From assembly GCA_964568715.1 (NCBI GenBank), contig CAZMQU010000001.1, positions 23,932-87,931 of the forward strand: a DNA stretch of 64,000 nucleotides, read 5' to 3'. Both the position numbers and the translations under genes were made by a program. Source of the stretch: an uncultured Halanaerobiales bacterium. Lineage in GTDB: Bacteria; Bacillota; Halanaerobiia; B1SED10-174. This document shows, one piece after another, positions 4,479-32,853 of the stretch. Under the pieces are notes generated by a model. That model made no database searches. It was not told the origin of the DNA and saw only the letters and a list, made by a program, of their open reading frames with translations. The first letter of the stretch is position 1. Each line of letters starts with the position of its first letter.

Positions 4479-4526
4479 TATACTATGTAAGCCCTTTTGC
4501 AAGAAGGCTGGTTCCGGAGGTGCAAA

Positions 4527-5069
4527 TTGCAGGATAATGAATTGGTGGCCCTTTGCCGGGGCGGACAAATAAATGTATATGCCTCTTTAGTTGAACGCTA
4601 CCAAGGGCCGATTTTTGGTTTGGCTTTGCAATTTCTGCATTCTAGGGCGGAGGCGGAAGAAGTAGCCCAAGAGTCTTTTTTGCGGGTTTACCAGCAAATT
4701 ATCAAGGGGAAAAATTTCACGTTTTTTCCCTATCTCAAGCGGGTTACGGTCAATCTTTGTTTCGACCGCTTGCGGCAAAGGGGCCGGGAGAGGGAATATA
4801 TCACAACTCTCTGCAACGATGAGGCGCTGATGGGGAATACACCGGAAGAGTCGGTTTTGCAGCAAGACGAAAAAAACAGTTTGCAGCATGCTCTGGCTTC
4901 TCTACCAAAGATGTATCAAGAGGTATTGCTACTGTTTTACGCCGCTGAATTGTCGCAAAAAGAGATTGCTGCCCATCTTGAAGTCCCCTTGTCTATTGTG
5001 AAAAACAGAATATTTCGAGCCAGGCGTTTATTAAAAGATGCCCATCAAAAAAGGAAAGGAGAATTATAA
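4527..5069 (+). CDS. ECF RNA polymerase sigma factor (SigW-like)
   Basis: Region 2 (AEEVAQESFLRVY, NLCFDRLR) and region 4.2 HTH (SQKEIAAHLEVPLSIVKNRIFRARRLL); TTG start at 4527 follows GGAGGTG. Confidence 0.92.
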   Translation: MQDNELVALCRGGQINVYASLVERYQGPIFGLALQFLHSRAEAEEVAQESFLRVYQQIIKGKNFTFFPYLKRVTVNLCFDRLRQRGREREYITTLCNDEALMGNTPEESVLQQDEKNSLQHALASLPKMYQEVLLLFYAAELSQKEIAAHLEVPLSIVKNRIFRARRLLKDAHQKRKGEL

Positions 5070-5564: not shown

Positions 5565-6460
5565 GGAAAAAGACTTTTAAGTTTAGTTTGTTATTGGCAA
5601 TAACACTTGTGGCTACAGCGGTTTTTACATGTGGAGCAACCGGCTCCCTACCGGTCCTTTTGGAGAGTGGGCGGACATTTTCCGACTCCAATAGAATCGT
5701 TTCCACCGGACGGGATGTCTTTGTGGCTCAGGGCGATGTGGCCGAAACAGTAGTTGTTATCGCGGCCAATGCTCGCATTGATGGGCGGGTTCGCGGTGAA
5801 GTTGTTGCCATTGGCGGTACCATCCATGTAGGACCCGAAGGTGTCATAGAAGGCACTGCCGTTGCCATCGGTGGTGGTTTGAAGATGGAACCGGGGGCCC
5901 AAGTTTACGGCGAGCAAGTCAATCTAGGCATTTTCAGGAACTCCCTGCCTTTTGTTGGAAAGTTTTTTCCTTTGACTTTAGGTTTTGCCTGGTGGCGCGC
6001 TTTGGCCGGCATCTTTTTGGCAATGATAATTTATTGGCTATTTCCCAAGCCGATTGGAAGGGTTGCTCTAACCATCAAGCAAGATCCTTTCAAGGTGACC
6101 CTTTTCGGCCTTTTGGGTTACCTGGCTTTGGTTCCTTCCATTATCCTTTTGATAATTACAATCTTGGGAATACCCTTGGTGCCCGTCCTTTTATTACTTT
6201 TTCTAGTCGGCAGAATACTGGGTAAGGTCGCTTTGGGTCTTTTGTTGGGGCAATATTTAGACGGCCAATTCAATTGGAAATGGCAGGAGGCTTTGTTAGT
6301 TTTAGCAGGGCTTGTCTTGCTAGCTTTGGTCGGCTTGATTCCCTTTGCCGGTAAGTTTGTTTCTTTTTTCTGCGGAATGGTCAGCATCGGCGCTGTTCTC
6401 TGGTCGCGAATGGGAACGCAGGTGCCAATATTAGAAGGAGGTAAGGAAGATGAAGAATAA
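5561..6460 (+). CDS. Membrane protein with exported beta-helix/bactofilin-like repeat domain
   Basis: Signal peptide, repeats VVAIGGTIHV/AVAIGGGLKM, then about 5 TM helices. Confidence 0.65.
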   Translation: MRKKTFKFSLLLAITLVATAVFTCGATGSLPVLLESGRTFSDSNRIVSTGRDVFVAQGDVAETVVVIAANARIDGRVRGEVVAIGGTIHVGPEGVIEGTAVAIGGGLKMEPGAQVYGEQVNLGIFRNSLPFVGKFFPLTLGFAWWRALAGIFLAMIIYWLFPKPIGRVALTIKQDPFKVTLFGLLGYLALVPSIILLIITILGIPLVPVLLLLFLVGRILGKVALGLLLGQYLDGQFNWKWQEALLVLAGLVLLALVGLIPFAGKFVSFFCGMVSIGAVLWSRMGTQVPILEGGKEDEE

Positions 6461-7271
6461 ATGGCTTAAGGCCGTTATTTTGGCCGGTATTATTTGGTTT
6501 TTCTTTATGGGCGTTGGTTATGCTTTTCCCTGCTTCAAAAATATATTACCCTGGATTGTTAATCAAAATGTAAGTGCGGAAAAAAATGAAACATTAAGCT
6601 ATCCCAGCCGGGGGCTTAATAAAGTGACCGTATCCACTTTCAACGGTCCCATCATTTTGGTCGGCCAAGAGGATGCGACAGAAATTACTGTTCAGGCAAA
6701 TTATCGGGTATGGGGTGGTAGCCAGAATGATGCCGAGGCAAAACTTGCAACCCTTAGTACGAAAATTGTTGAAAGCACCAGGGGAAGTTTGACCATTGAA
6801 GGTGTTTTTGAGGGCTCGAAGACCAATAACTCCATCAGTTATGTCATTAGCTTGCCCCCCCATATACTGGTGGAAGCCAATACTTCCAACGGCAGGATTG
6901 AAGTTTCTGATTTGTATGGCGACTTACAGCTAATAACCAGCAACGGCCGCATCAATGTGGAGACCGAAAAAGGTCCCGGCCAACTGGTGGCCCGTACCAG
7001 CAACGGTCGTATCTTCGTTAAGGCCCGGCCCGTCGGCAACTCTATTGATCTTCATACCTCTAACGGCAGAATTGACATTGTTCTGCCTGCCGATTTGGGT
7101 ATCACTCTGTCAGCCCGCACCAGTAACGGCAAGATTAATTTGGGGGAGAGTCTATGGGCAATTCAAGGCGGAGAATTGAGTAAAAAAACAGTGGATGCTC
7201 GTCGAGGTAACGGCAGGCTGCGCTTGACGGCGATGACCAGCAACGGTAATATCAGTTTGAGCGAATTATAA
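6450..7271 (+). CDS. DUF4097-type beta-strand repeat protein
   Basis: Signal/anchor followed by repeated xxTSNGRI motifs. Confidence 0.8.
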   Translation: MKNKWLKAVILAGIIWFFFMGVGYAFPCFKNILPWIVNQNVSAEKNETLSYPSRGLNKVTVSTFNGPIILVGQEDATEITVQANYRVWGGSQNDAEAKLATLSTKIVESTRGSLTIEGVFEGSKTNNSISYVISLPPHILVEANTSNGRIEVSDLYGDLQLITSNGRINVETEKGPGQLVARTSNGRIFVKARPVGNSIDLHTSNGRIDIVLPADLGITLSARTSNGKINLGESLWAIQGGELSKKTVDARRGNGRLRLTAMTSNGNISLSEL

Positions 7272-7533: not shown

Positions 7534-8535
7534 GTGGCAGTTGTTTTAAGCGGCGGCGGTGCCAAGGGGGCTTACGAAGCAGGGGCCTTGGTTTCTTTGG
7601 CCCAAACAATTGACAAGATCGATGTGATTACCGGGGCTTCCATTGGTGCCATCAACGCGGCATTGTTTGCTTGGGAGTATGAAAAAAGCGGCGACATGCT
7701 TTGGGCTGCCAAGGCGGTTAAAGCAACATGGTCCGAGTTGGGGCGGCTTTTTAAGTTTAGTTTTTGGCACCTGGTTAAGGGGATGTTATTTGCTTTTTTA
7801 CAGACCTGTTCTCCTTTTAATTTTACTTCTTTGGTAGATACGGCCTTGATCAAAGAAAAGTTGCAGCGATTGATACCGCCTCGTTTGTATATCAGCGACA
7901 TTACCCGTTTGGAGTTGGCCATCAATGCCACCTGTTTAAGCACGGGTAAGACAGTTACTTTTAACCGCAATAACGATATCCCTTTATGGGAGGCAGCCTT
8001 GGCCTCCAGTTCCATACCTATTCTTTTTGCCTCCCGTTACATCGGCGGCGCCTATTATGTCGATGGGGGGATCTTTAATAATACGCCCCTTAAAGATGCT
8101 ATCGCTGCCCAAGCCAGTGATATTTTTGTTGTTGAACTTAAACCCAAAAGCAAAGACCTATATATGGAGACCATCGGAGAAAAAAGTGATTTCAAAGGGG
8201 CCTATCGGGTTGGGGCTCGCTTAATGGAATTGATCTTTGATAAGATAATGTATGAAGATTTAAAGAAGGCTAAAAAGACAAATGAGATTATCGAAGTCAT
8301 TAAGGCATTGGAGGCAAGCGGGCCCAATAGAGAGCTGCTAGAGCAACTTAAAACCTCCATCGGTTATGAAAAGGATGGCCAGGTTAAACGGTATATCAAT
8401 TTTTATGAAATAGCTCCCTCGCAGCGCTTGGAGCCCCCCGGGACTTTGGGTTTTAGGAATAAAAAGGCCATTGAAAATATAATAAAACTGGGTGAAAAAG
8501 ATGCCCGCCAACAGCTGGCAAGTTTTTCTTGTTGA
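7534..8535 (+). CDS. Patatin-like phospholipase (true start probably slightly upstream)
   Basis: VLSGGGAKG, GASIG nucleophile, DGG motif. Confidence 0.9.
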   Translation: MAVVLSGGGAKGAYEAGALVSLAQTIDKIDVITGASIGAINAALFAWEYEKSGDMLWAAKAVKATWSELGRLFKFSFWHLVKGMLFAFLQTCSPFNFTSLVDTALIKEKLQRLIPPRLYISDITRLELAINATCLSTGKTVTFNRNNDIPLWEAALASSSIPILFASRYIGGAYYVDGGIFNNTPLKDAIAAQASDIFVVELKPKSKDLYMETIGEKSDFKGAYRVGARLMELIFDKIMYEDLKKAKKTNEIIEVIKALEASGPNRELLEQLKTSIGYEKDGQVKRYINFYEIAPSQRLEPPGTLGFRNKKAIENIIKLGEKDARQQLASFSC

Positions 8536-8656: not shown

Positions 8657-8685
8657 TTGACAAGGCATGTAATTTAGGATACAAT
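8657..8685 (+). promoter_or_regulatory. sigma-A promoter upstream of SAM riboswitch
   Basis: TTGACA-N17-TACAAT. Confidence 0.8.
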
Positions 8686-8712
8686 TGTTAAGTAAATAGA
8701 ATAAAAGCTTTA

Positions 8713-8818
8713 GGCTCTTATCAAGAGAGGTGGAGGGACTGGCCCTAGGAAACCTCGGCAACCACGAATTATTTCGATGGTGCCAATTCCAGCAACACGA
8801 AGTGTTGAAAGATGAGGG
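8713..8818 (+). ncRNA. SAM-I (S-box) riboswitch
   Basis: CTCTTATCAAGAGAGGTGGAGGGACTGGCCC...GGCAACC...GGTGCCAATTCCAGC...GAAAGATGAG consensus core. Confidence 0.95.
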
Positions 8819-8839
8819 AAATAGGTAGCTAGTAAAAAC

Positions 8840-8871
8840 AAGCCTCTTTCTCTCAAGGGAAAGGGGCTTTT
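8840..8871 (+). terminator. SAM riboswitch expression-platform terminator
   Basis: AAGCCTCTTTCTC/GGGAAAGGGGCTT stem followed by T run. Confidence 0.8.
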
Positions 8872-9097
8872 AAAATTGGTGAGTCCGATGTAGCGGTAAA
8901 CAGCTTATCGCAAAGAAATTTAAAATAACTGAATATGGGGATTGTAAATTAGTTTTACAACCGAATTTAAAACAAACTACTAATAGACGTTGATATAATA
9001 TGGTCCCGTTTGCAAATTGTTTTTTGCTCGGCTTGATTGGCAGCGATCGATAAATGGTGAAGCAAAAAAACTATTGGTCAAATTATGGCAAACAATG

Positions 9098-9126
9098 TTG
9101 ACAGGGCCATTTCCATATGTTAGAAT
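9098..9126 (+). promoter_or_regulatory. sigma-A promoter upstream of lysine riboswitch
   Basis: TTGACA-N17-TAGAAT. Confidence 0.8.
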
Positions 9127-9160
9127 CATAGTTAATTGCATAGATTGCCCTCTGGAAACG

Positions 9161-9329
9161 GATAGAGGCGCGGTTAAGAGGTAGAGATGATGAGGAACAG
9201 GTCCGATGATTCATTCTGAGGGCTTAACCGCCGAAGTTGTAAGCCGACCTGTTGAAGGTTTACTACTGGGCTTGCGTTTGATAGGCGTAAGACTGTCACT
9301 GCTTGAATTCCTGCAGTGGAGAGCTATTC
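9161..9329 (+). ncRNA. Lysine riboswitch (L-box)
   Basis: ATAGAGGCGCGG...AGAGGTAG...GCCGAAG...TGGGCTT...AAGACTGTCAC...GTGGAGAGCTAT architecture, upstream of dap genes. Confidence 0.9.
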
Positions 9330-9348
9330 TACAATGATAATTTATTTG

Positions 9349-9376
9349 ATACGGTTGTAGATGGCCGTATTTTTTT
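9349..9376 (+). terminator. Lysine riboswitch terminator
   Basis: ATACGGTT/GGCCGTAT stem followed by 6 T. Confidence 0.7.
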
Positions 9377-9499
9377 ACTTTTGCGGTTGGTAAATGTAAC
9401 CATTTAAGGCGCAGTTTTGTGTAATGGTCGGTCGTTAATAGAAAATTGCTTGTAAAGATGTGTCAATATTGTCGTTAAAAATAGCCGTTCAACTTTTTC

Positions 9500-9527
9500 A
9501 CTTGGCAGGATTATTTGACATATATTA
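9500..9527 (+). promoter_or_regulatory. Candidate sigma-K promoter for dpaA
   Basis: AC-N17-CATATATTA matching AC-N17-CATAnnnTA; spoVF is sigma-K dependent in B. subtilis. Confidence 0.55.
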
Positions 9528-9549
9528 TAGCGGTAATGGGGTGATATGA

Positions 9550-10440
9550 GTGATAGGATTAAAGAATTTAAAGGTAGGCTTTATTGGCGGTGATAAACGA
9601 GAGACCATATTGATGCAATACTTGCAAAGGCAGGGGGCAAAAATAAGCATACTGGGGCTCCCGCCCGCCGCTGTCGATGCTGAAGCATTTCATCGGCCGG
9701 AGGATTTTTTTGCTGCCGTTGAAATTGTTATTGGGCCCTTACCTGGTACCGATGCAGAGGGTTACATAAGAGGAGCTTACTTGCCGGGCGGTTTGCGGCT
9801 CGATGAGGAATTTTTCAAAAAACTTGGTTCAAATAAACCAATGATTATTGGTATGATGCCGGCAAACTTGGTCGATAAAGGCCTTGCCATGGGTGCAAAC
9901 ATCATCCTCAGTGCCGATTTGGATGAGATCGCCGTATTAAATGCAATCCCCACTGCCGAGGGAGCTATTCAAATAGCTTTGGCGGAAAGTGAAAGGACTT
10001 TATTCGGCAATACATCTGTTGTTCTGGGTTTGGGGAGAGTAGGGCGTGTTATGGGGCATCGTTTAGCCCTTTTAGGTTCAAAGGTATACGGTGTTACCAG
10101 AAGTCCGGCTGCCCACGCCTGGGGGCTTGACCTGGGCATAAAACCGGCCGGCTATGCTGACTTGGATTCAATATTGCCCCAAGCCCATTTTATATTTAAT
10201 ACGGTGCCGGCCATGGTTATGCCTGAAAAGGTTTTAAAGCTTTGCAACAGCGAAACAATTATTATTGATTTGGCTTCCGCTCCGGGTGGGGTCGATTTTG
10301 ACAGTGCAAAAAGGTTGGGCATTAAGGCCTTATTGTGTTTGGGCTTGCCTGGCAAGCTTTTCCCCTGCTCAGCGGGAGAAATATTGTGCCAAACATATCC
10401 GCGCTTGCTTCTGAAAGCGTTGGCAAAAAGTGAAGAGTAA
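9550..10440 (+). CDS. dpaA: Dipicolinate synthase subunit A (SpoVFA)
   Basis: IGGDKRE, NAIPTAEGAI, IIDLASAPGGVDF, GLPGK motifs; operon position. Confidence 0.93.
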   Translation: MIGLKNLKVGFIGGDKRETILMQYLQRQGAKISILGLPPAAVDAEAFHRPEDFFAAVEIVIGPLPGTDAEGYIRGAYLPGGLRLDEEFFKKLGSNKPMIIGMMPANLVDKGLAMGANIILSADLDEIAVLNAIPTAEGAIQIALAESERTLFGNTSVVLGLGRVGRVMGHRLALLGSKVYGVTRSPAAHAWGLDLGIKPAGYADLDSILPQAHFIFNTVPAMVMPEKVLKLCNSETIIIDLASAPGGVDFDSAKRLGIKALLCLGLPGKLFPCSAGEILCQTYPRLLLKALAKSEE

Positions 10441-10459: not shown

Positions 10460-11056
10460 ATGGCAGTGTTAAAGGGTTTGCGTGTTGGCTTTGCTTTTAC
10501 CGGTTCCTTTTGTACTTTTGAAAATGTGTTGCCGGCCTTGGAGGAAATGGTCGAGAACGGAGCTATTGTGACCCCCATATTTTCCCCGGCAGCGGCATCA
10601 ACTGACACACGCTTTGGAACGGCCTCCCATTGGCGGCAAAGCGTCGAACAAATAACCGGTCAGGAAATTATATTTGAATGTGTCGACGCTGAACCCATTG
10701 GGCCGCGGGGTTTGCTGGATTTGATGGTGATTGCCCCTTGTACGGGTAATACCTTAGCCAAACTTGCCCATGGCATTTCCGACGGGCCGGTCTTGCTTGG
10801 TACAAAGGCCCATTTGCGTAATGGCAGGCCGGTTTTGTTGGCTATAGCCACCAATGACGGTTTAGGTAATAATGCAGCGAATATAGGACGTTTGTTGAAT
10901 ACCAAAAACATCTATTTTGTGCCTTTCGGCCAAGATGATCCTTTTAATAAAGGAAATTCTCTGATTGCCCATATGGAATATATATGTCAGGCGGCAGAGG
11001 CGGCGATGAACGGAGAACAAATACAGCCGGTTCTCCTATCTTATGAGTCGAGGTGA
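10460..11056 (+). CDS. dpaB: Dipicolinate synthase subunit B (SpoVFB)
   Basis: TGSFCT, APCTGNTLAKLA, KAHLRNGRP, TNDGL, FGQDDP, QIQP motifs. Confidence 0.95.
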   Translation: MAVLKGLRVGFAFTGSFCTFENVLPALEEMVENGAIVTPIFSPAAASTDTRFGTASHWRQSVEQITGQEIIFECVDAEPIGPRGLLDLMVIAPCTGNTLAKLAHGISDGPVLLGTKAHLRNGRPVLLAIATNDGLGNNAANIGRLLNTKNIYFVPFGQDDPFNKGNSLIAHMEYICQAAEAAMNGEQIQPVLLSYESR

Positions 11057-12084
11057 GGAAGTTGAAAGTAGGAATTGTTGGAGCAACGGGTTTAGTCGGC
11101 AGAAAATTTATTGAATTGCTGGAAGAAAGAGAGTTCCCCATCGAAGAGTTGCATTTGTTTGCTTCGGAAAGATCGAAGGGAAAATTGATGCAATTCAAAG
11201 AGGATAATATAGAGGTGGAAAGTTTGGCGGCAGCAAAAAACATGCTACTCGATGTCGTTTTTGTTGCCACCGGTTCCGACATCAGTCGCCAATGGGTTCC
11301 CCTGTTTTTGGCGAATGGTGCCACAGTTATCGATAACAGCAGTTGTTGGCGGATGGAGGAAGACGTGCCTTTGGTCGTACCGGAGGTAAACTATGAATCT
11401 ATCAAAGCAGATAACAAGCTAATTGCCAATCCAAATTGTGTCGTAAGTCAATTGGTCGTTGCCTTAAAACCGATTTTTGATAATTTCACCGTAGAGGAAA
11501 TATTTTTGACCAGTCTGCAGTCTGTTTCCGGAGCCGGAACAAAGGGTATAGCTGACCTGACCATCGGCAGCAATAATTATCATGGTAGGAAAAGTTATAA
11601 TGAAACGGAAGGATTCTTTATCCGACCAATCGCCCACAACCTGATACCGCAAATAGGTTCCATGAATTCTGACGGGGTGACCGGTGAAGAGGAAAAAGTG
11701 ATTGAGGAAACGAGGAAAATATTTTCCTGCCCAGATTTGAAAATGGCGGTTACTTGTGTAAGGGTCCCTGTCTATTACGGCCACAGCATATCGATTACCG
11801 TCAAAGTGGCCGAGAGGTGTACTTTGCAGGAATTTGTCGCTTCTTTTAGAGGTGCAAAAGGGATTGCCGAGTTCGGCCTGCCCAGCGAATATATTACCCC
11901 TCGTGATTTAACGGCGGAAGGTGCCGTCCATGTAGGTCGAATAAGACAAGGAGCAGGTATGGAGGGTTGCTTCTCCCTGTGGGTCGTTGCCGATAACCTT
12001 TTAAAGGGTGCTGCTTTGAATGCTATCCAGATAGCTGAATCTTTGTTTGCGGAGAAGAATGCTGCTGTTAGGGGTGTGTATTAA
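11053..12084 (+). CDS. asd: Aspartate-semialdehyde dehydrogenase
   Basis: VGATGLVG, IANPNC, QSVSGAG, CVRVPV, DNLLKGAALNAIQIAE. Confidence 0.95.
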   Translation: MRKLKVGIVGATGLVGRKFIELLEEREFPIEELHLFASERSKGKLMQFKEDNIEVESLAAAKNMLLDVVFVATGSDISRQWVPLFLANGATVIDNSSCWRMEEDVPLVVPEVNYESIKADNKLIANPNCVVSQLVVALKPIFDNFTVEEIFLTSLQSVSGAGTKGIADLTIGSNNYHGRKSYNETEGFFIRPIAHNLIPQIGSMNSDGVTGEEEKVIEETRKIFSCPDLKMAVTCVRVPVYYGHSISITVKVAERCTLQEFVASFRGAKGIAEFGLPSEYITPRDLTAEGAVHVGRIRQGAGMEGCFSLWVVADNLLKGAALNAIQIAESLFAEKNAAVRGVY

Positions 12085-13316
12085 TGGGGGTGGCAGGATA
12101 CAATGATATTATTGTCCAAAAATTCGGCGGAACTTCTTTGTCTTCACTGGAAAATATTGATAGGGCCGTTACCAAAATTATCGCTGCCTTGGAAAAAGGC
12201 TTTCGCCCCGTGGCAATCGTATCAGCCATGGGCAGAGCCGGTAGCCCTTATGCAACCGATACTCTTTTAAATGCACTGCGTGAAGCCAGCCCCGGCGCAG
12301 CTGCCCGGGAAAAAGATCTTTTGATGTCATGCGGCGAAATAATAAGTACGGTTTTCATTACATCAATTCTCCGGGAGAGAGGTTTTCCGGCGGTTGCCAT
12401 GACCGGCGGCCAAGCAGGAATTATTACCAACAACAACTATGGTGAAGCCAAGATTCTGCGTGTCAAACCCGATAAGGTGCGGGAGGCTTTGGCTGAAGGT
12501 ATAATTCCTGTTGTAGCGGGTTTTCAAGGCCGGACCCCGGAAGGAGATGTAACTACTTTAGGTCGCGGTGGCAGCGATATAACGGCTTCTGTCATTGCAG
12601 TCGCCTTGAATGCTTCTCTTTTGGAGATATATACTGATGTCGACGGGGTGCTAACGGCTGATCCTCAAAAAGTGCCTGATGCCCAGGTTCTGCCGGAAGT
12701 ATCTTACGAAGAGATATTGGAATTGGCCGCCCAAGGGGCTAAGGTGATTCATCCGCAGGCGGTAAAGATTGCCGGTAAAAGGAATATGCCTATTAAAATA
12801 TTACCTACGTTTAGTGATAAGCCCGGAACCCTCATTAAAGCCAAAAGCAAATATAGCAGTTCACCCGAGAGGATAGTTACGGGAATAACCAGCAAAAACA
12901 ATAAGGTTTATGTGGAAGTTCAAAGTAAAGAAGGCTACAAGGGTCATTGCAATTTGCAAACCCTCAAGTCTTTATACGAAAATAATATCGGCGTTGATTT
13001 TTTAAGTTTACAGCCATCATCTTTATCGTTTATAGTCGGCAAAAAATTTATAGGTAAGATGGAAGAAATTTTTGCAGAAAAATATATATATAATTACGAA
13101 AACGGCTTCTGTAAAGTTACGATTATCGGCAGTGAATTTTTCTGTGGATACAGGATTCTAAGTGACGCATTGGCGGCACTGCAGAAGGAGAATATAGCCA
13201 TACAACAGGTTAGGGATAGCCAATCTACGGTCTCATTGCTCTTAAGAGAGAGCGACGAAGAGGATGCTTTGAAGACCCTGCATAAAAAATTCAGGCTTGA
13301 GGAGGTTGTTTTATGA
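12084..13316 (+). CDS. dapG: Aspartate kinase (DapG-like)
   Basis: VQKFGGTS, SAMGR, TLGRGGSD, YTDVDGVLTADP; position between asd and dapA. Confidence 0.88.
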   Translation: MGVAGYNDIIVQKFGGTSLSSLENIDRAVTKIIAALEKGFRPVAIVSAMGRAGSPYATDTLLNALREASPGAAAREKDLLMSCGEIISTVFITSILRERGFPAVAMTGGQAGIITNNNYGEAKILRVKPDKVREALAEGIIPVVAGFQGRTPEGDVTTLGRGGSDITASVIAVALNASLLEIYTDVDGVLTADPQKVPDAQVLPEVSYEEILELAAQGAKVIHPQAVKIAGKRNMPIKILPTFSDKPGTLIKAKSKYSSSPERIVTGITSKNNKVYVEVQSKEGYKGHCNLQTLKSLYENNIGVDFLSLQPSSLSFIVGKKFIGKMEEIFAEKYIYNYENGFCKVTIIGSEFFCGYRILSDALAALQKENIAIQQVRDSQSTVSLLLRESDEEDALKTLHKKFRLEEVVL

Positions 13317-14203
13317 CTTACTTTGGCAGGTTAATCACTGCCATGGTTACACCATTTGGTGATGATCTTTCGATTGACGGAAGTAAAGTTCAACTACTGA
13401 CGAGGTACTTAATTGAAGAACAAAAAACCGATGCTATTGTTGTTGCAGGAACAACCGGAGAAGCCCCTACGTTGACAGGGGAAGAACGATTGGAACTGTT
13501 TCGCCTTGTAGTTGATGCGGCAAACGGAGATTGCCAGGTATTGGGGGGAACCGGAACGAACAGTACGGCCACTACGGTAGATCTTTCTCAAAGAACCAAA
13601 GGTATTGGTCTTGATGGAATAATGGTTGTCGTCCCTTACTATAACAAACCCACTCAGGAGGGTGTCTATGCCCACTTTGCAACTGTGGCGGCAAAGGTTG
13701 ATTTACCGATGATGGTATACAATGTGCCCGGTCGTACCGGGATGAATGTCGGTCTGGAAACTTTGTGCCGGCTGGCCGATATTGAACAGATAAAAGCATT
13801 GAAAGAAGCAACCTTGGATTTTGATAAGATTGCATTGCTAAGGAAAGAAGTCGGCAACGATTTTGCTATTTACAGCGGTGATGATAATTTAACTTTGCCC
13901 CATTTAGCAGTTGGTTGTGACGGTGTTGTCAGCGTAGCTTCTCATGTTGCCGGAACCCGGATTAAAAGGATGATTGAATTATTTAAAGACGAGGTATCCA
14001 ATGAAAGGGCTTTGGAGCTTCATATGGAACTGTTGCCCGTATTTCAAAGTGTTTTCCAAACTACCAATCCGATACCCATTAAGGCTGCTTTGGCCATGGT
14101 GGGGCAAGATGTCGGCGGTTTGCGCCCTCCTTTACAAAGAGCTGGGGAAGATGATAAAGAAGCGATAAGAAAACTATTGGTAGAAGGTAAGGTTCTGAAT
14201 TAA
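13313..14203 (+). CDS. dapA: 4-hydroxy-tetrahydrodipicolinate synthase
   Basis: ITAMVTPF, GTTGE, PYYNKP, YNVPGRTG, catalytic KEA, YSGDD, NPIPIK. Confidence 0.95.
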   Translation: MTYFGRLITAMVTPFGDDLSIDGSKVQLLTRYLIEEQKTDAIVVAGTTGEAPTLTGEERLELFRLVVDAANGDCQVLGGTGTNSTATTVDLSQRTKGIGLDGIMVVVPYYNKPTQEGVYAHFATVAAKVDLPMMVYNVPGRTGMNVGLETLCRLADIEQIKALKEATLDFDKIALLRKEVGNDFAIYSGDDNLTLPHLAVGCDGVVSVASHVAGTRIKRMIELFKDEVSNERALELHMELLPVFQSVFQTTNPIPIKAALAMVGQDVGGLRPPLQRAGEDDKEAIRKLLVEGKVLN

Positions 14204-25442: not shown

Positions 25443-25518
25443 TGGAGCTGGCGGCCGGAATTGAACCGGCGACCTGGGCATTACAAGTGCCCCGCTCTGC
25501 CTGCTGAGCTACGCCAGC
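25443..25518 (-). tRNA. tRNA-Thr(TGT)
   Basis: Cloverleaf GCTGGCGTAGCTCAG...GGGCA-CTTGTAA-TGCCC...GGTTCAATTCC...CCA. Confidence 0.95.
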
Positions 25519-27104: not shown

Positions 27105-27181
27105 CGGGATGTGGCGCAGCCTGGTAGCGCGCACGTCTGGGGGGCGTGAAGCCGGGAGTTCAAATCTCCCCATCCCGACCA
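27105..27181 (+). tRNA. tRNA-Pro(GGG)
   Basis: CGGGATGTGGCGCAGCCTGGTAGC...CACGT-CTGGGGG-GCGTG...TTCAAAT...CCA. Confidence 0.95.
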
Positions 27182-28074: not shown

Positions 28075-28389
28075 ATGCGTATTAAGGATCATCCCATTTT
28101 GACATTTGAAGAAAAGAAAACTGTAAATTTCATGTTCAATGGGAAGCAATTGCAAGGCTATGAGGGTGAACCGATAGCTGCTGCCTTACACAATGCCGGT
28201 GTCAAGGTATATAGGCTCAGCGATCGGCATGAGCGCCCGCGGGGTTTTTATTGCGCGATCGGTAACTGTTCTTCTTGTTTGATGGTCGTCAATGGTGAAC
28301 CCAATGTTCGTATCTGTGTTACACCGCTTCAAGAAGGAATGCGTGTCGAATATCAAGAAGGTAAGGGGGATTTGGATGTCAGCGTTTGA
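28075..28389 (+). CDS. 2Fe-2S protein like the N-terminus of sarcosine oxidase alpha / HcnA
   Basis: GEPIAAAL, RPRGFYCAIGNCSSCLMVVNGEPNVRIC. Confidence 0.88.
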   Translation: MRIKDHPILTFEEKKTVNFMFNGKQLQGYEGEPIAAALHNAGVKVYRLSDRHERPRGFYCAIGNCSSCLMVVNGEPNVRICVTPLQEGMRVEYQEGKGDLDVSV

Positions 28390-29446
28390 TATTGCAATTA
28401 TCGGTGCAGGCCCCGCCGGTATGGCAGCTGCTAAACAGGCTGCTTCTTATGGGGCAAAAATACTCCTTATCGAAAGGGACAACTGGTTGGGGGGGCAGCT
28501 GGTCAAGCAAACCCACCGTTTTTTTGGGTCAAAAAGTGAGTTTGCCGGGACCCGCGGCATTGCAATTACCCAACTATTATGCGATGAGATCGAAAAAAAT
28601 GACAAGATTACGGTTTTGAAAGACGCAACTGCCTTGGGGTACTATGATGACGGTGTTTTGACAATTTCCCACGACGGGAAGATGTTGCGCGTATCGCCGA
28701 AGCTGCTGATAGTGGCAACGGGTGCTATGGAAAAGATGATTCCTTTCCGCAATAACGATTTGCCCGGTGTTTACGGTGCCGGCGGAGTGCAAACTTTGAT
28801 GAACTTATACGGTGTAAAGCCGGGACATAAGGTTTTGATGATTGGTGCCGGCAATATCGGTTTGATTGTCAGTTATCAATTGATGCAAGCCGGTGTAGAA
28901 GTGAGTGCGGTAATAGAAGGTATGCCCACCATCGGCGGTTATCTGGTCCATGCTTCCAAGATACGTCGTTTGGGTATTCCCATAATGACGAGCCACACAA
29001 TTACCCGCGCTATCGGCAAGGAATATGTTGAAGGTGCTGAAATTGTCCAAATAGATAAAAACTGGCAACCCATTCAGGGAACAAGCAAAATTCTTGATGT
29101 CGACGTAATTTGCTTGGCTGTCGGTTTGGCCCCTTTGATTGAAATCTTGGGACAGGCAAACTGCCAAATGAAATATTGCGGTGCTCTGGGCGGATTGGTA
29201 CCTTTGCGGGATGAATTGCTGGAGACGACAATCGAAGGAGTATATGTTGCCGGAGATGCTGCAGGAGTGGAGGAGGCAACGGCTGCCATTTTGGAAGGAC
29301 AATTGGCCGGTTGTGCTGCCGCCCAAAAACTCGGTTTTGCTGTACCGGCTGAAGATATCAGTAAAGTTCGTAAATCTTTGGATGCCCTGAGATCAGGTCC
29401 TGTCTGTGAACATATAGTCGAGGGCCTGGCAATGGTTCGGAGGTGA
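28376..29446 (+). CDS. FAD/NAD(P)-dependent oxidoreductase (alpha-subunit core)
   Basis: IIGAGPAG, LGGQL, VATGAME, IGAGNIG, YVAGDA; ATG at 28376. Confidence 0.88.
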   Translation: MSAFDIAIIGAGPAGMAAAKQAASYGAKILLIERDNWLGGQLVKQTHRFFGSKSEFAGTRGIAITQLLCDEIEKNDKITVLKDATALGYYDDGVLTISHDGKMLRVSPKLLIVATGAMEKMIPFRNNDLPGVYGAGGVQTLMNLYGVKPGHKVLMIGAGNIGLIVSYQLMQAGVEVSAVIEGMPTIGGYLVHASKIRRLGIPIMTSHTITRAIGKEYVEGAEIVQIDKNWQPIQGTSKILDVDVICLAVGLAPLIEILGQANCQMKYCGALGGLVPLRDELLETTIEGVYVAGDAAGVEEATAAILEGQLAGCAAAQKLGFAVPAEDISKVRKSLDALRSGPVCEHIVEGLAMVRR

Positions 29447-29450
29447 TGTA

Positions 29451-29954
29451 ATGCTGGAAAATACAGGTGTACCAACAAGAGAAGATATTGAAAAGGTTCT
29501 GCCTTCAGAAGAGAGACTTAAAAAGGGCCCTGTCGCCGTAATTGAGTGTTTTCAAAAAATACCTTGCGACCCCTGCTACCACAGTTGTCTGCGGGGTGCA
29601 ATCAACCCTTTGATTGATATCAACGATTTGCCTATAGTAGACCATGAAAGATGTAACGGATGTAGTTTATGCATTACTAACTGTCCCGGACTGGCAATCT
29701 TTATCATCGATGCCACCTATAGCGAAGATGAAGCTTTAATTAAAATGCCTTACGAAATGAGACCGTTACCTGAAGAAGGAGAGATTGTTACTTCTCTTAA
29801 CCGGGAAGGTGAAGCAGTGGGAGAAGGTAGAATTGTTAAGGTCGAACTGAGAAAAAGGCATGACAAGACGGCAATAGTATCTATGGCTGTTCCAAAAAAA
29901 GATTTACATGAAGTCCGTAATTTTCAACTAAGGGGGGCTACCGGTGAAAGATAA
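29451..29954 (+). CDS. 4Fe-4S ferredoxin-domain subunit
   Basis: ECFQKIPCDPCYHSC and CNGCSLCITNCPG clusters. Confidence 0.88.
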   Translation: MLENTGVPTREDIEKVLPSEERLKKGPVAVIECFQKIPCDPCYHSCLRGAINPLIDINDLPIVDHERCNGCSLCITNCPGLAIFIIDATYSEDEALIKMPYEMRPLPEEGEIVTSLNREGEAVGEGRIVKVELRKRHDKTAIVSMAVPKKDLHEVRNFQLRGATGER

Positions 29955-30228
29955 TGACGATATCATCCTATGTTTCTGCGAAGACATCACGCGGGGAGAA
30001 GTTCGCCAGGCGGTGAAGGAAGGTATTACCACCTTGGAAGCTTTGAAAAGACTGCTTCGCTGCGGAATGGGGCGTTGCCAGGGTAAAACTTGTGAAAACC
30101 TCATTGTCAATGAAATTATGGCTTTGACCGGCAAAAGCAGGGAGGAAGTCTTGCGGCCCAAAAAGCGACCCATGACTGTTGGGATACCCATAGAAGATGT
30201 TGCTAGGAGTGTAGAATATGAGGAATAA
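29944..30228 (+). CDS. BFD-like (2Fe-2S) subunit
   Basis: CFCEDIT, KRLLRCGMGRCQGKTC, RP.TV. Confidence 0.85.
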   Translation: MKDNDDIILCFCEDITRGEVRQAVKEGITTLEALKRLLRCGMGRCQGKTCENLIVNEIMALTGKSREEVLRPKKRPMTVGIPIEDVARSVEYEE

Positions 30229-31363
30229 AGCTGATGTTGTAATTATTGGTGGCGGAGTTGTTGGTTGTTCCATTGCTTACAATTTGGCTAAGCTTGGTTG
30301 TACAGATGTGGTTATATTGGAAAAAGAATATCTGACATCCGGTTCAACCGGTCGATGTGGTGCCGGAATCAGACAGCAATGGGGTACTGAAATGAACTGC
30401 ATGTTGGCTAAGACCAGCATGGATATTTTTGAAAAAATGAACGAAATGCTCGATTATAAAAGGGATGTTGAAATCAGGCAAAGCGGTTATCTGATTTTGG
30501 CCTATTCTGAAAAAGAAGTCGAGCAGTTTAAGAAAAATATAGAATTACAAAAGAAAATGGGTATAATATCGCATCTTTTGACTCCCGCAGAGGCAAAAGA
30601 AATCGTTCCTCATCTAAATACAGAAGGTCTTTTGGCAGCTACCTATTGTGATAGGGACGGCCATGCCAACCCCTTTCATGTAACCCAGGCTTATGCGGAG
30701 GCAGCGGAACGTTTGGGTGTAGAGATCAACACCTACACGGAGTGTACGGAAATATTAAGGGAGGGCGGAAAAATTGTCGGAGTGAATACCAATCGGGGCA
30801 AAATAGCAACTGACACTGTTATTAATGCTGCCGGTGGGTATTCTGCTGAAGTTGCTGCTATGGTAGGAGTTGAATTGCCCATATATTCCGAACGACATCA
30901 AATTCTCGTTACGGAACCGGTAAATCCAATCCAAGAACCGATGGTAATGTCTTTTTCTCGCAACATATACTGTCAGCAGGTTCCCCACGGTTCCTTTGTA
31001 ATGGGTTATGGCGATCCGACCGAACTGAAGGGTCATGATATCGGTCACAGCTGGCAATTTTTAATGAGAATGACCAAAGTAATAACCGATATTTTACCTC
31101 TTTTGGGGAAGATTCGTATCGTTCGTCAATGGTCAGGTTCTTACAATATTACGCCCGATGCCCAGCCGGTTATTTGCGAGGCTGAAGATGTGCCCGGTTT
31201 CTTTATGGCTGTGGGTTTTAGCGGCCACGGCTTCATGATTGCCCCTGTTACCGGAATTCTTGTAGCGGAAATGGTACTAGGCAAAGAACTAACCATTCCG
31301 ATTAAGCTGGATTATGGCAGATTTGCCCGCGGCGAGTTGATTTTGGAACCCTCCGTCGTTTAA
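30218..31363 (+). CDS. FAD-dependent amine/imino-acid oxidase (sarcosine oxidase beta / proline dehydrogenase beta-like)
   Basis: IIGGGVVG, GSTGRCGAGIRQQW, WSGSYNITPDAQPVI, GFSGHGFM. Confidence 0.88.
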   Translation: MRNKADVVIIGGGVVGCSIAYNLAKLGCTDVVILEKEYLTSGSTGRCGAGIRQQWGTEMNCMLAKTSMDIFEKMNEMLDYKRDVEIRQSGYLILAYSEKEVEQFKKNIELQKKMGIISHLLTPAEAKEIVPHLNTEGLLAATYCDRDGHANPFHVTQAYAEAAERLGVEINTYTECTEILREGGKIVGVNTNRGKIATDTVINAAGGYSAEVAAMVGVELPIYSERHQILVTEPVNPIQEPMVMSFSRNIYCQQVPHGSFVMGYGDPTELKGHDIGHSWQFLMRMTKVITDILPLLGKIRIVRQWSGSYNITPDAQPVICEAEDVPGFFMAVGFSGHGFMIAPVTGILVAEMVLGKELTIPIKLDYGRFARGELILEPSVV

Positions 31364-32513: not shown

Positions 32514-32599
<86 letters not shown>

Positions 32600-32607
32600 T
32601 TTATTAC

Positions 32608-32685
32608 GGTGGGTGTAGCTCAGGTGGTTAGAGCGCAGGATTGTGGATCCTGAGGCCGTGGGTTCAAATCCCATCACTCACCCCA
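32608..32685 (+). tRNA. tRNA-His(GTG)
   Basis: CAGGA-TTGTGGA-TCCTG, G-1 and C73. Confidence 0.96.
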
Positions 32686-32686
32686 A

Positions 32687-32773
32687 GCGAAGGTGGTGGA
32701 ATTGGCAGACACGCTAGACTTAGGATCTAGTGGGCTTATACCCTTGGGGGTTCAAATCCCCCCCTTCGCACCA
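32687..32773 (+). tRNA. tRNA-Leu(TAG)
   Basis: CTAGA-CTTAGGA-TCTAG, variable arm, CCA. Confidence 0.95.
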
Positions 32774-32776
32774 TAC

Positions 32777-32853
<77 letters not shown>

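Follow-up and report, generated by a model that had tools for sequence, protein, structure and literature searches.

Lysine, diaminopimelate, dipicolinate, methionine and threonine all depend on the two enzymes that open the aspartate family pathway, and how these branches are balanced is a classic question of regulation, to which isoenzymes and allosteric feedback are the usual answer. The 64-kb window analysed here (64,000 nucleotides of contig CAZMQU010000001.1, from an uncultured Halanaerobiales bacterium) contains an operon for dipicolinate synthase (dpaA and dpaB), aspartate-semialdehyde dehydrogenase (asd), a monofunctional aspartokinase and dapA, and raises the question of why a complete S-adenosylmethionine (SAM) riboswitch of the SAM-I (S-box) class, with no gene of its own, stands ahead of the lysine (L-box) riboswitch of this operon. 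In this study, we describe the leader as three stacked control units, namely promoter P1 with the SAM-I riboswitch, promoter P2 with the lysine riboswitch, and a sporulation-type promoter P3, and propose with moderate confidence that P1 transcripts would be under serial, NOR-type control by the two ligands.

The window was scanned with Rfam at the gathering threshold, which gave a single SAM-I and a single lysine aptamer, each matching its covariance model (RF00162 and RF00168) over the full length; no non-canonical pair was flagged in the SAM-I match (Table 1). A preliminary description of this DNA had listed promoter P1 at 8657, the SAM-I riboswitch with its terminator, a gap free of open reading frames (ORFs), promoter P2 at 9098, the lysine riboswitch with its terminator, and the operon, and all of these were located where it had placed them. 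Both aptamers begin approximately 30 nt past their near-consensus promoters. In the SAM unit, the antiterminator overlaps the 3' strand of aptamer helix P1 and competes with both that helix and the terminator, and this sharing of the strand by the terminator/antiterminator platform is characteristic of an S-box. The lysine antiterminator (9324-9335 paired with 9352-9363) uses the 3' strand of the aptamer closing stem, and the full aptamer and platform are followed by asd, aspartokinase and dapA, as in an L-box leader. Because only four U follow its stem, the SAM terminator may be leaky; it was left uncalled by the consensus terminator scan owing to the short T run. No sulfur, methionine or SAM gene stands directly after the SAM-I element, where there is no ORF at all and dpaA lies 680 nt further on, behind the second leader. 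The asd and aspartokinase genes of the operon supply the methionine/SAM branch, and feed it only indirectly. The region therefore has the make-up of a tandem: two full riboswitches for different ligands, in the same orientation, within one intergenic region that has no ORF between them.

The juxtaposition of the two leaders is not an artefact of assembly. Independently assembled Logan contigs of two runs extend over 8718-9890 and 8716-9608 with zero differences, a further Logan contig spans 8300-8744, and the contigs across the SAM/lysine junction rule out a chimera.

The whole block recurs in a second species, L001, whose DpaA is 82% identical to that of the window. The same SAM-I and lysine aptamers are present there at the same spacing, with no conserved ORF in the gap, while the upstream neighbour differs, being a divergent ABC-transporter ATPase gene in L001 and a co-directional patatin-like gene in the window. 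The 4-fold degenerate sites of dpaA (115 sites, 59% identical between the window and L001) were used as a neutral yardstick, and the unconstrained parts of the leader are 38-64% identical. Measured against the neutral value, the identity of the SAM aptamer (95%), of its terminator (100%) and of the promoter hexamers (100%) points to purifying selection. All five substitutions in the aptamer are, by our reading of the alignment, unpaired and lie in the loops of P2, P3 and P4 or in the bulge of P3. Judging from these comparisons, the gene-less SAM unit, promoter and terminator included, is under purifying selection and not decaying, and P1, the aptamer and the terminator make up what appears to be a complete, selected S-box leader without a coding gene of its own, for which a response to SAM is predicted.

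These figures also bear on the possibility that the SAM unit is a relic of evolution that serves no purpose today, the gene having been deleted or the leader duplicated, and is merely undecayed. A gene-linked homologue of the SAM leader does exist, and the gene-less form is present in only two closely related species; however, the conservation of aptamer, terminator and hexamers far above both the 4-fold sites and the spacer, and the restriction of every aptamer change to unpaired positions, are what purifying selection on a functional riboswitch and its promoter leaves behind, and make this explanation improbable. The preliminary description had offered an orphan left after gene loss as one alternative, and in the sense of a dead relic it is contradicted by the conservation of the block in L001.

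The homologue was found in one contig of 1926 nt (run X1) and one of 1202 nt (run X4), and is approximately 88% identical to the window over 8725-8871, including the terminator. Directly 3' of it stands TGATTGGGAGGGGTTTATTGTGATTGAATT, which corresponds to a Shine-Dalgarno sequence and GTG start (GGGAGGGG-N6-GTG). With a ribosome-binding site and start codon in this place, the homologue shows that the SAM unit was ancestrally gene-linked and is descended from a conventional S-box leader; the route to the gene-less state may have been duplication of the leader or loss of its gene. Within 1.8 kb downstream of the X1/X4 leader, no match at 80% identity or above was obtained to the window gap, the lysine leader or dpaA. 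This type of leader was unseen in runs X2 and X3, where the window organism has similar depth, and its probable source is a different organism in these communities.

The gap that a P1 transcript would have to cross measures approximately 226 nt from the SAM terminator to P2, and from the SAM terminator as far as the lysine leader, a consensus scan of the + strand found nothing else that resembles a terminator. No + strand ORF of at least 20 amino acids starts in 8873-9016. The sole small ORF common to L001 (9085-9123, 12 codons, MANNVDRAISIC in the window and MANNVDRAILIC in L001) overlies promoter P2 and has no Shine-Dalgarno sequence, and its conservation is most likely explained by the promoter; a hidden gene in the gap is ruled out on these grounds. 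A permissive scan of the gap for other Rfam families returned only noise, with E above 1. As P2 lies between the two elements, only P1 transcripts could carry both riboswitches.

We propose that, when SAM is high, P1 transcripts would end at approximately 8871, and that when SAM is low they would cross the gap and P2 into the lysine leader and face the same lysine checkpoint as P2 transcripts. Vegetative output would then be approximately (P1 x 'SAM low' + P2) x 'lysine low', in other words a NOR gate acting on P1 transcripts, on top of the lysine-only control of P2 transcripts, and its purpose would be the provision of more aspartate semialdehyde for methionine/SAM synthesis. Provided that P1 read-through RNA reaches the lysine leader, NOR control of P1 transcripts and lysine-only control of P2 transcripts follow directly. 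Whether the 5' extension would disrupt the lysine aptamer was also considered, and no disruption was predicted: in an equilibrium folding model the pair probability of the aptamer was 0.78 in the P1 transcript, with the extension, and 0.77 in the P2 transcript, without it. During sporulation, P3 transcripts would start past both terminators, and dipicolinate synthesis would ignore both ligands.

The third promoter had been overlooked in the preliminary description, whose P1 and P2 held. P3 is situated downstream of both riboswitch terminators and directly upstream of dpaA, and for this reason sporulation-time transcription from it would bypass both riboswitches. Its motif, AC-N17-CATATATTA, which we take to be the sigma-K consensus as it is known from B. 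subtilis, also occurs in the 150 nt before dpaA in 21 of the 78 other Bacillota lineages examined, compared with 3 of 1485 background windows (0.2%) drawn at random from the same dpaA loci, an enrichment of more than 100-fold. Between the lysine terminator and P3, the block 9446-9490 is 73% identical to L001, with only 38% in the preceding 9378-9445, and may serve to bind a co-regulator of sporulation.

Several observations weigh against serial control. No RNA run contains the sequence, hence a transcript joining both leaders stays inferred. The contribution of P1 could be small, because P2 is near-consensus, and the 336 nt between the two aptamers are far more than is typical of tandems. A NOR gate turns the shared enzymes off at high lysine even if SAM is low, and the benefit of this is not obvious. 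The earlier account of serial control stands as to architecture, which is conserved as a block and has no intervening terminator, but its rationale was incomplete, both on this point and in that P3 bypasses the two sensors. When 71 GTDB and 9 further dpaA loci were scanned by Rfam, and all of them also by loose SAM-I patterns, a SAM element was found in none of the 80, leaving the arrangement known in two species only. Finally, the segment 8878-8975 of the gap is conserved above neutral, for which simple read-through gives no explanation.

This segment is central to a different reading, in which the SAM unit would be a non-coding RNA gene in its own right that only happens to adjoin the operon. 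In one version, the SAM-terminated RNA of approximately 180 nt would act in trans, in the manner of Listeria SreA/SreB or the Desulfovibrio SAM-I small RNA; in the other, SAM would gate a longer RNA carrying 8878-8975, comparable to the B12 riboswitch and Rli55/EutX. The unit has a complete promoter, aptamer and terminator without an ORF, and 8840-8890 is kept at 100% in L001, the approximately 13 nt of 8878-8890 extending the identical terminator. The segment as a whole exceeds the neutral identity, and within it the stem of a hairpin at 8893-8911 is kept in L001 (with one G-U to G-C change) while the loop varies; plain read-through needs neither this hairpin nor the extended identity. A strong P2 would, moreover, make the input in cis partly redundant. 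SreA and Rli55 (PMC8079631) and the Desulfovibrio (DvH) SAM-I small RNA (bioRxiv 10.1101/803072) are precedents, and the SAM unit resembles SreA/SreB (SAM), Rli55/EutX (B12) and the DvH RNA in that its product may be RNA and its terminated form would be a discrete small RNA. SreA, however, keeps a downstream operon of its own and Rli55 has recognisable ANTAR sites, whereas no target or protein-binding motif was found for the SAM unit of the window, the conserved segment has no Rfam match, and read-through from the unit enters another leader. The gap is no more complementary to the lysine leader than would be expected by chance. Read-through RNA would in any case run unimpeded into the operon, so that an effect in cis would exist anyway, and the metabolic link of SAM to Asd and aspartokinase suggests that the position is not accidental. 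We regard an independent RNA gene as somewhat unlikely.

The complementarity between the gap and the lysine leader was of further interest, as P1 read-through RNA might alter the decision of the lysine riboswitch, for instance by sequestering the 5' arm of its terminator, and the operon would then be on if either SAM or lysine were low (NAND). Such logic would suit enzymes common to two branches better than NOR, and UUUACAACCG at 8954-8963 is indeed complementary to part of the lysine terminator, CGGUUGUAGA at 9352-9361, both arms being identical in L001. When the gap was dinucleotide-shuffled 1000 times, however, an equally good duplex with this target was obtained in 16% of cases for the window and in 12.5% for L001, and the leader contains a better target than the lysine terminator arm. 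The arm at 8954-8963 can also enter a local hairpin, by our reading of the sequence, although the two-sequence consensus fold does not predict that hairpin, and there is no covariation to draw on. A lysine-independent antiterminator in the P1 read-through RNA was rejected, as the 10-bp complementarity is at chance level and the duplex energy of the whole segment is no better than that of shuffles. The NAND reading is thus very improbable. Taken as a single proposition, that the SAM unit is a SAM-controlled non-coding RNA acting on another partner through its conserved extension (8878-8975) or its terminated form, as Rli55 and SreA do, or else reprogrammes the lysine riboswitch to NAND, is considered unlikely, and serial control of P1 transcripts remains the preferred reading.

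Among the dpaA loci, a lysine riboswitch was found approximately 1 kb upstream of dpaA in 11 of the 71 GTDB loci (L005, L006, L014, L024, L037, L043, L051, L053, L054, L074 and L075) and in L087, and the loci concerned include Moorella, Orenia, Fuchsiella, Halanaerobacter and several metagenome-assembled genomes. The gene between the lysine riboswitch and dpaA was dapB in all three loci checked (L006, L024 and L054), with the order dapB-dpaA-dpaB-asd-aspartokinase. In L091 (56% DpaA identity), the lysine riboswitch stands directly before dpaA, as in the window, and the contig ends inside the lysine aptamer; in L092 and L093 (47% and 45% DpaA identity), the operon is present and the riboswitch absent. 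A single-protein GTDB scan for the tandem found none, a scan of Joint Genome Institute (JGI) metagenomes yielded six loci, none of them informative on the tandem, and a search with the N-terminal third of DpaA, aimed at cut contigs, gave no matches. These loci indicate that the lysine leader is an ordinary feature of this type of operon, which the L-box would control, and that two features, the SAM unit and the lack of dapB, are, within this sampling, specific to the small clade of the window. Dipicolinate genes are unmentioned in the main text of a lysine-riboswitch survey (PMC5584792). The Clostridia operons of the order given above share with the window the class of lysine riboswitch with its terminator and a sigma-K-type motif that stands immediately before dpaA and downstream of the riboswitch; they have dapB first and no SAM element, whereas the window operon is without dapB and has the SAM unit added upstream.

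A census of two-input tandems from the Breaker laboratory records as NOR gates only SAM-I/adenosylcobalamin (AdoCbl; 8 cases) and AdoCbl/SAM-I (3 cases), along with 14 double-lysine arrangements (PMC9481103), and a SAM-I/lysine pair is not among the pairs listed in this 2022 source. The available text of a 2025 survey describes tandem SAM, T-box and cobalamin elements before hom, with no SAM/lysine pair (PMC12452182). The closest in logic is SAM-I/AdoCbl before metE in Bacillus clausii and others, described in the census, citing Sudarsan et al. 2006, as a two-input NOR gate (PMC9481103). It shares with the window two full OFF riboswitches for different ligands, in series, each with its own intrinsic terminator, with SAM-I first and a predicted NOR outcome. 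In contrast, the window has lysine as the second ligand, a separation of 336 nt and a conserved promoter between the elements, and the aspartate common-pathway/dipicolinate operon takes the place of a methionine synthase as its target, with the logic predicted from the DNA. The closest in promoter layout is the tandem of adenine riboswitch and T-box(Tyr) before tyrZ of Clostridium botulinum, where canonical -35/-10 promoters precede the first element and lie between the elements, so that first-promoter transcripts meet both sensors and second-promoter transcripts only the downstream one (PMC9481103); it differs from the window in having other sensors, one ON element (NOT A AND B) and no third, sporulation-type promoter. 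The earlier remark that tandems for different ligands are rare makes the arrangement seem more exceptional than it is, as a nested-promoter tandem and the SAM-I/AdoCbl NOR gate had both been published (PMC9481103). As read from the sequence, SAM-I/lysine is a ligand pair new to an established class of riboswitch tandems, supplemented with a putative sporulation bypass promoter. If the two switches act in series, SAM and lysine signals would be integrated by RNA only on one operon, with a developmental promoter overriding both; SAM-I/lysine would join the short list of natural two-input riboswitch gates and offer a compact template for how nested promoters weight two inputs. The value of this is limited by its basis, which is two uncultured species so far and sequence alone.

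All occurrences of the sequence were in metagenomes from bioreactors, anaerobic digesters and landfill, with a depth of approximately 3-7. Among 5.8 billion proteins there were only four DpaA relatives at 56-82% identity, and the nearest named organisms by DpaA were Anoxybacter, Fuchsiella and Syntrophomonas, at approximately 42-45% identity. The organism of the window is an uncultured member of a poorly sampled lineage of spore-forming Bacillota.

The features of the leader and of the operon are listed in Table 1. In the ORF list, the stop of dpaB overlaps the start of asd, and the same holds for asd and aspartokinase and for aspartokinase and dapA; with genes that overlap or nearly touch, there is no intergenic space for a separate promoter before asd. 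In B. subtilis, a separate vegetative promoter precedes asd. No tblastn match to dapB was obtained in the leader or anywhere in the 64-kb window, even at E <=10, which rules out a dapB remnant in the leader. The gene after dapA encodes RNase J.

Table 1. Leader elements and operon genes of the window, with their identity to the second species L001.
Feature	Position	Strand	Identity to L001	Details
Possible UP element, A+T-rich block upstream of P1	8605..8656	+	83%	function inferred
Promoter P1, sigma-A type	8657..8685	+	83% (P1 block)	TTGACA-17-TACAAT, 11/12 positions match; both hexamers identical, five spacer changes
SAM-I (S-box) aptamer	8715..8818	+	95%	RF00162, 99.6 bits vs gathering 44.4, model 1-108 of 108
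SAM antiterminator	8813..8855	+		8813-8826 pairs with 8842-8855; duplex free energy -17.1 kcal/mol
SAM terminator	8840..8877	+	100%	13-bp hairpin 8840-8869, free energy -18.7; short U tract UUUUAAAAUU
Conserved non-coding segment after SAM terminator	8878..8975	+	78%	neutral 59%
Unconstrained spacer	8976..9080	+	64%, with indels	near neutral; without conserved ORF
Promoter P2, sigma-A type	9098..9126	+	87% (P2 block)	TTGACA-17-TAGAAT, TG extension, 11/12 positions match; hexamers identical, spacer varies
Lysine (L-box) aptamer	9155..9334	+	93% (aptamer and platform)	RF00168, 103.5 bits vs 30, model 1-182 of 182
Lysine terminator	9348..9377	+	93%	hairpin 9348-9371 and seven T
Segment after lysine terminator	9378..9445		38%	
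Block containing P3	9491..9549		95%	
Promoter P3, sigma-K type	9500..9527	+		AC-N17-CATATATTA
dpaA, dipicolinate synthase subunit A	9550..10440	+		GTG start; NF006162, 281.7 bits
dpaB, dipicolinate synthase subunit B	10460..11056	+		NF006161, 294.7 bits
asd, aspartate-semialdehyde dehydrogenase	11053..12084	+		NF011456, 371.4 bits
Monofunctional aspartokinase, DapG-like	12084..13316	+		NF006068, 455.8 bits, just below 474 cutoff; TIGR00657, 344.7 vs 208.7
dapA, 4-hydroxy-tetrahydrodipicolinate synthase	13313..14203	+		TIGR00674, 314.3 bits

Upstream of the leader, the window contains a gene for an extracytoplasmic function (ECF)-type sigma factor (4497-5069), followed by two ORFs without a Pfam match and by a protein weakly similar to LiaG/LiaX (6450-7271). 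The patatin-like phospholipase gene lies at 7534-8535; among NCBIfam models it is matched best by that of the CBASS cGAMP-activated lipase, with a score of 51.7 bits that falls far short of the 200-bit cutoff. Further downstream, four tRNA genes form a + strand cluster at 32514-32850 and another is located at 27105-27178, and a lone - strand tRNA gene (25446-25518) was found in a region where nearly all ORFs are on the + strand. Genes resembling those for the alpha and beta subunits of sarcosine oxidase (soxA/soxB subfamily, well under the cutoffs) are present at 28292-31363 in this anaerobic-digester organism.

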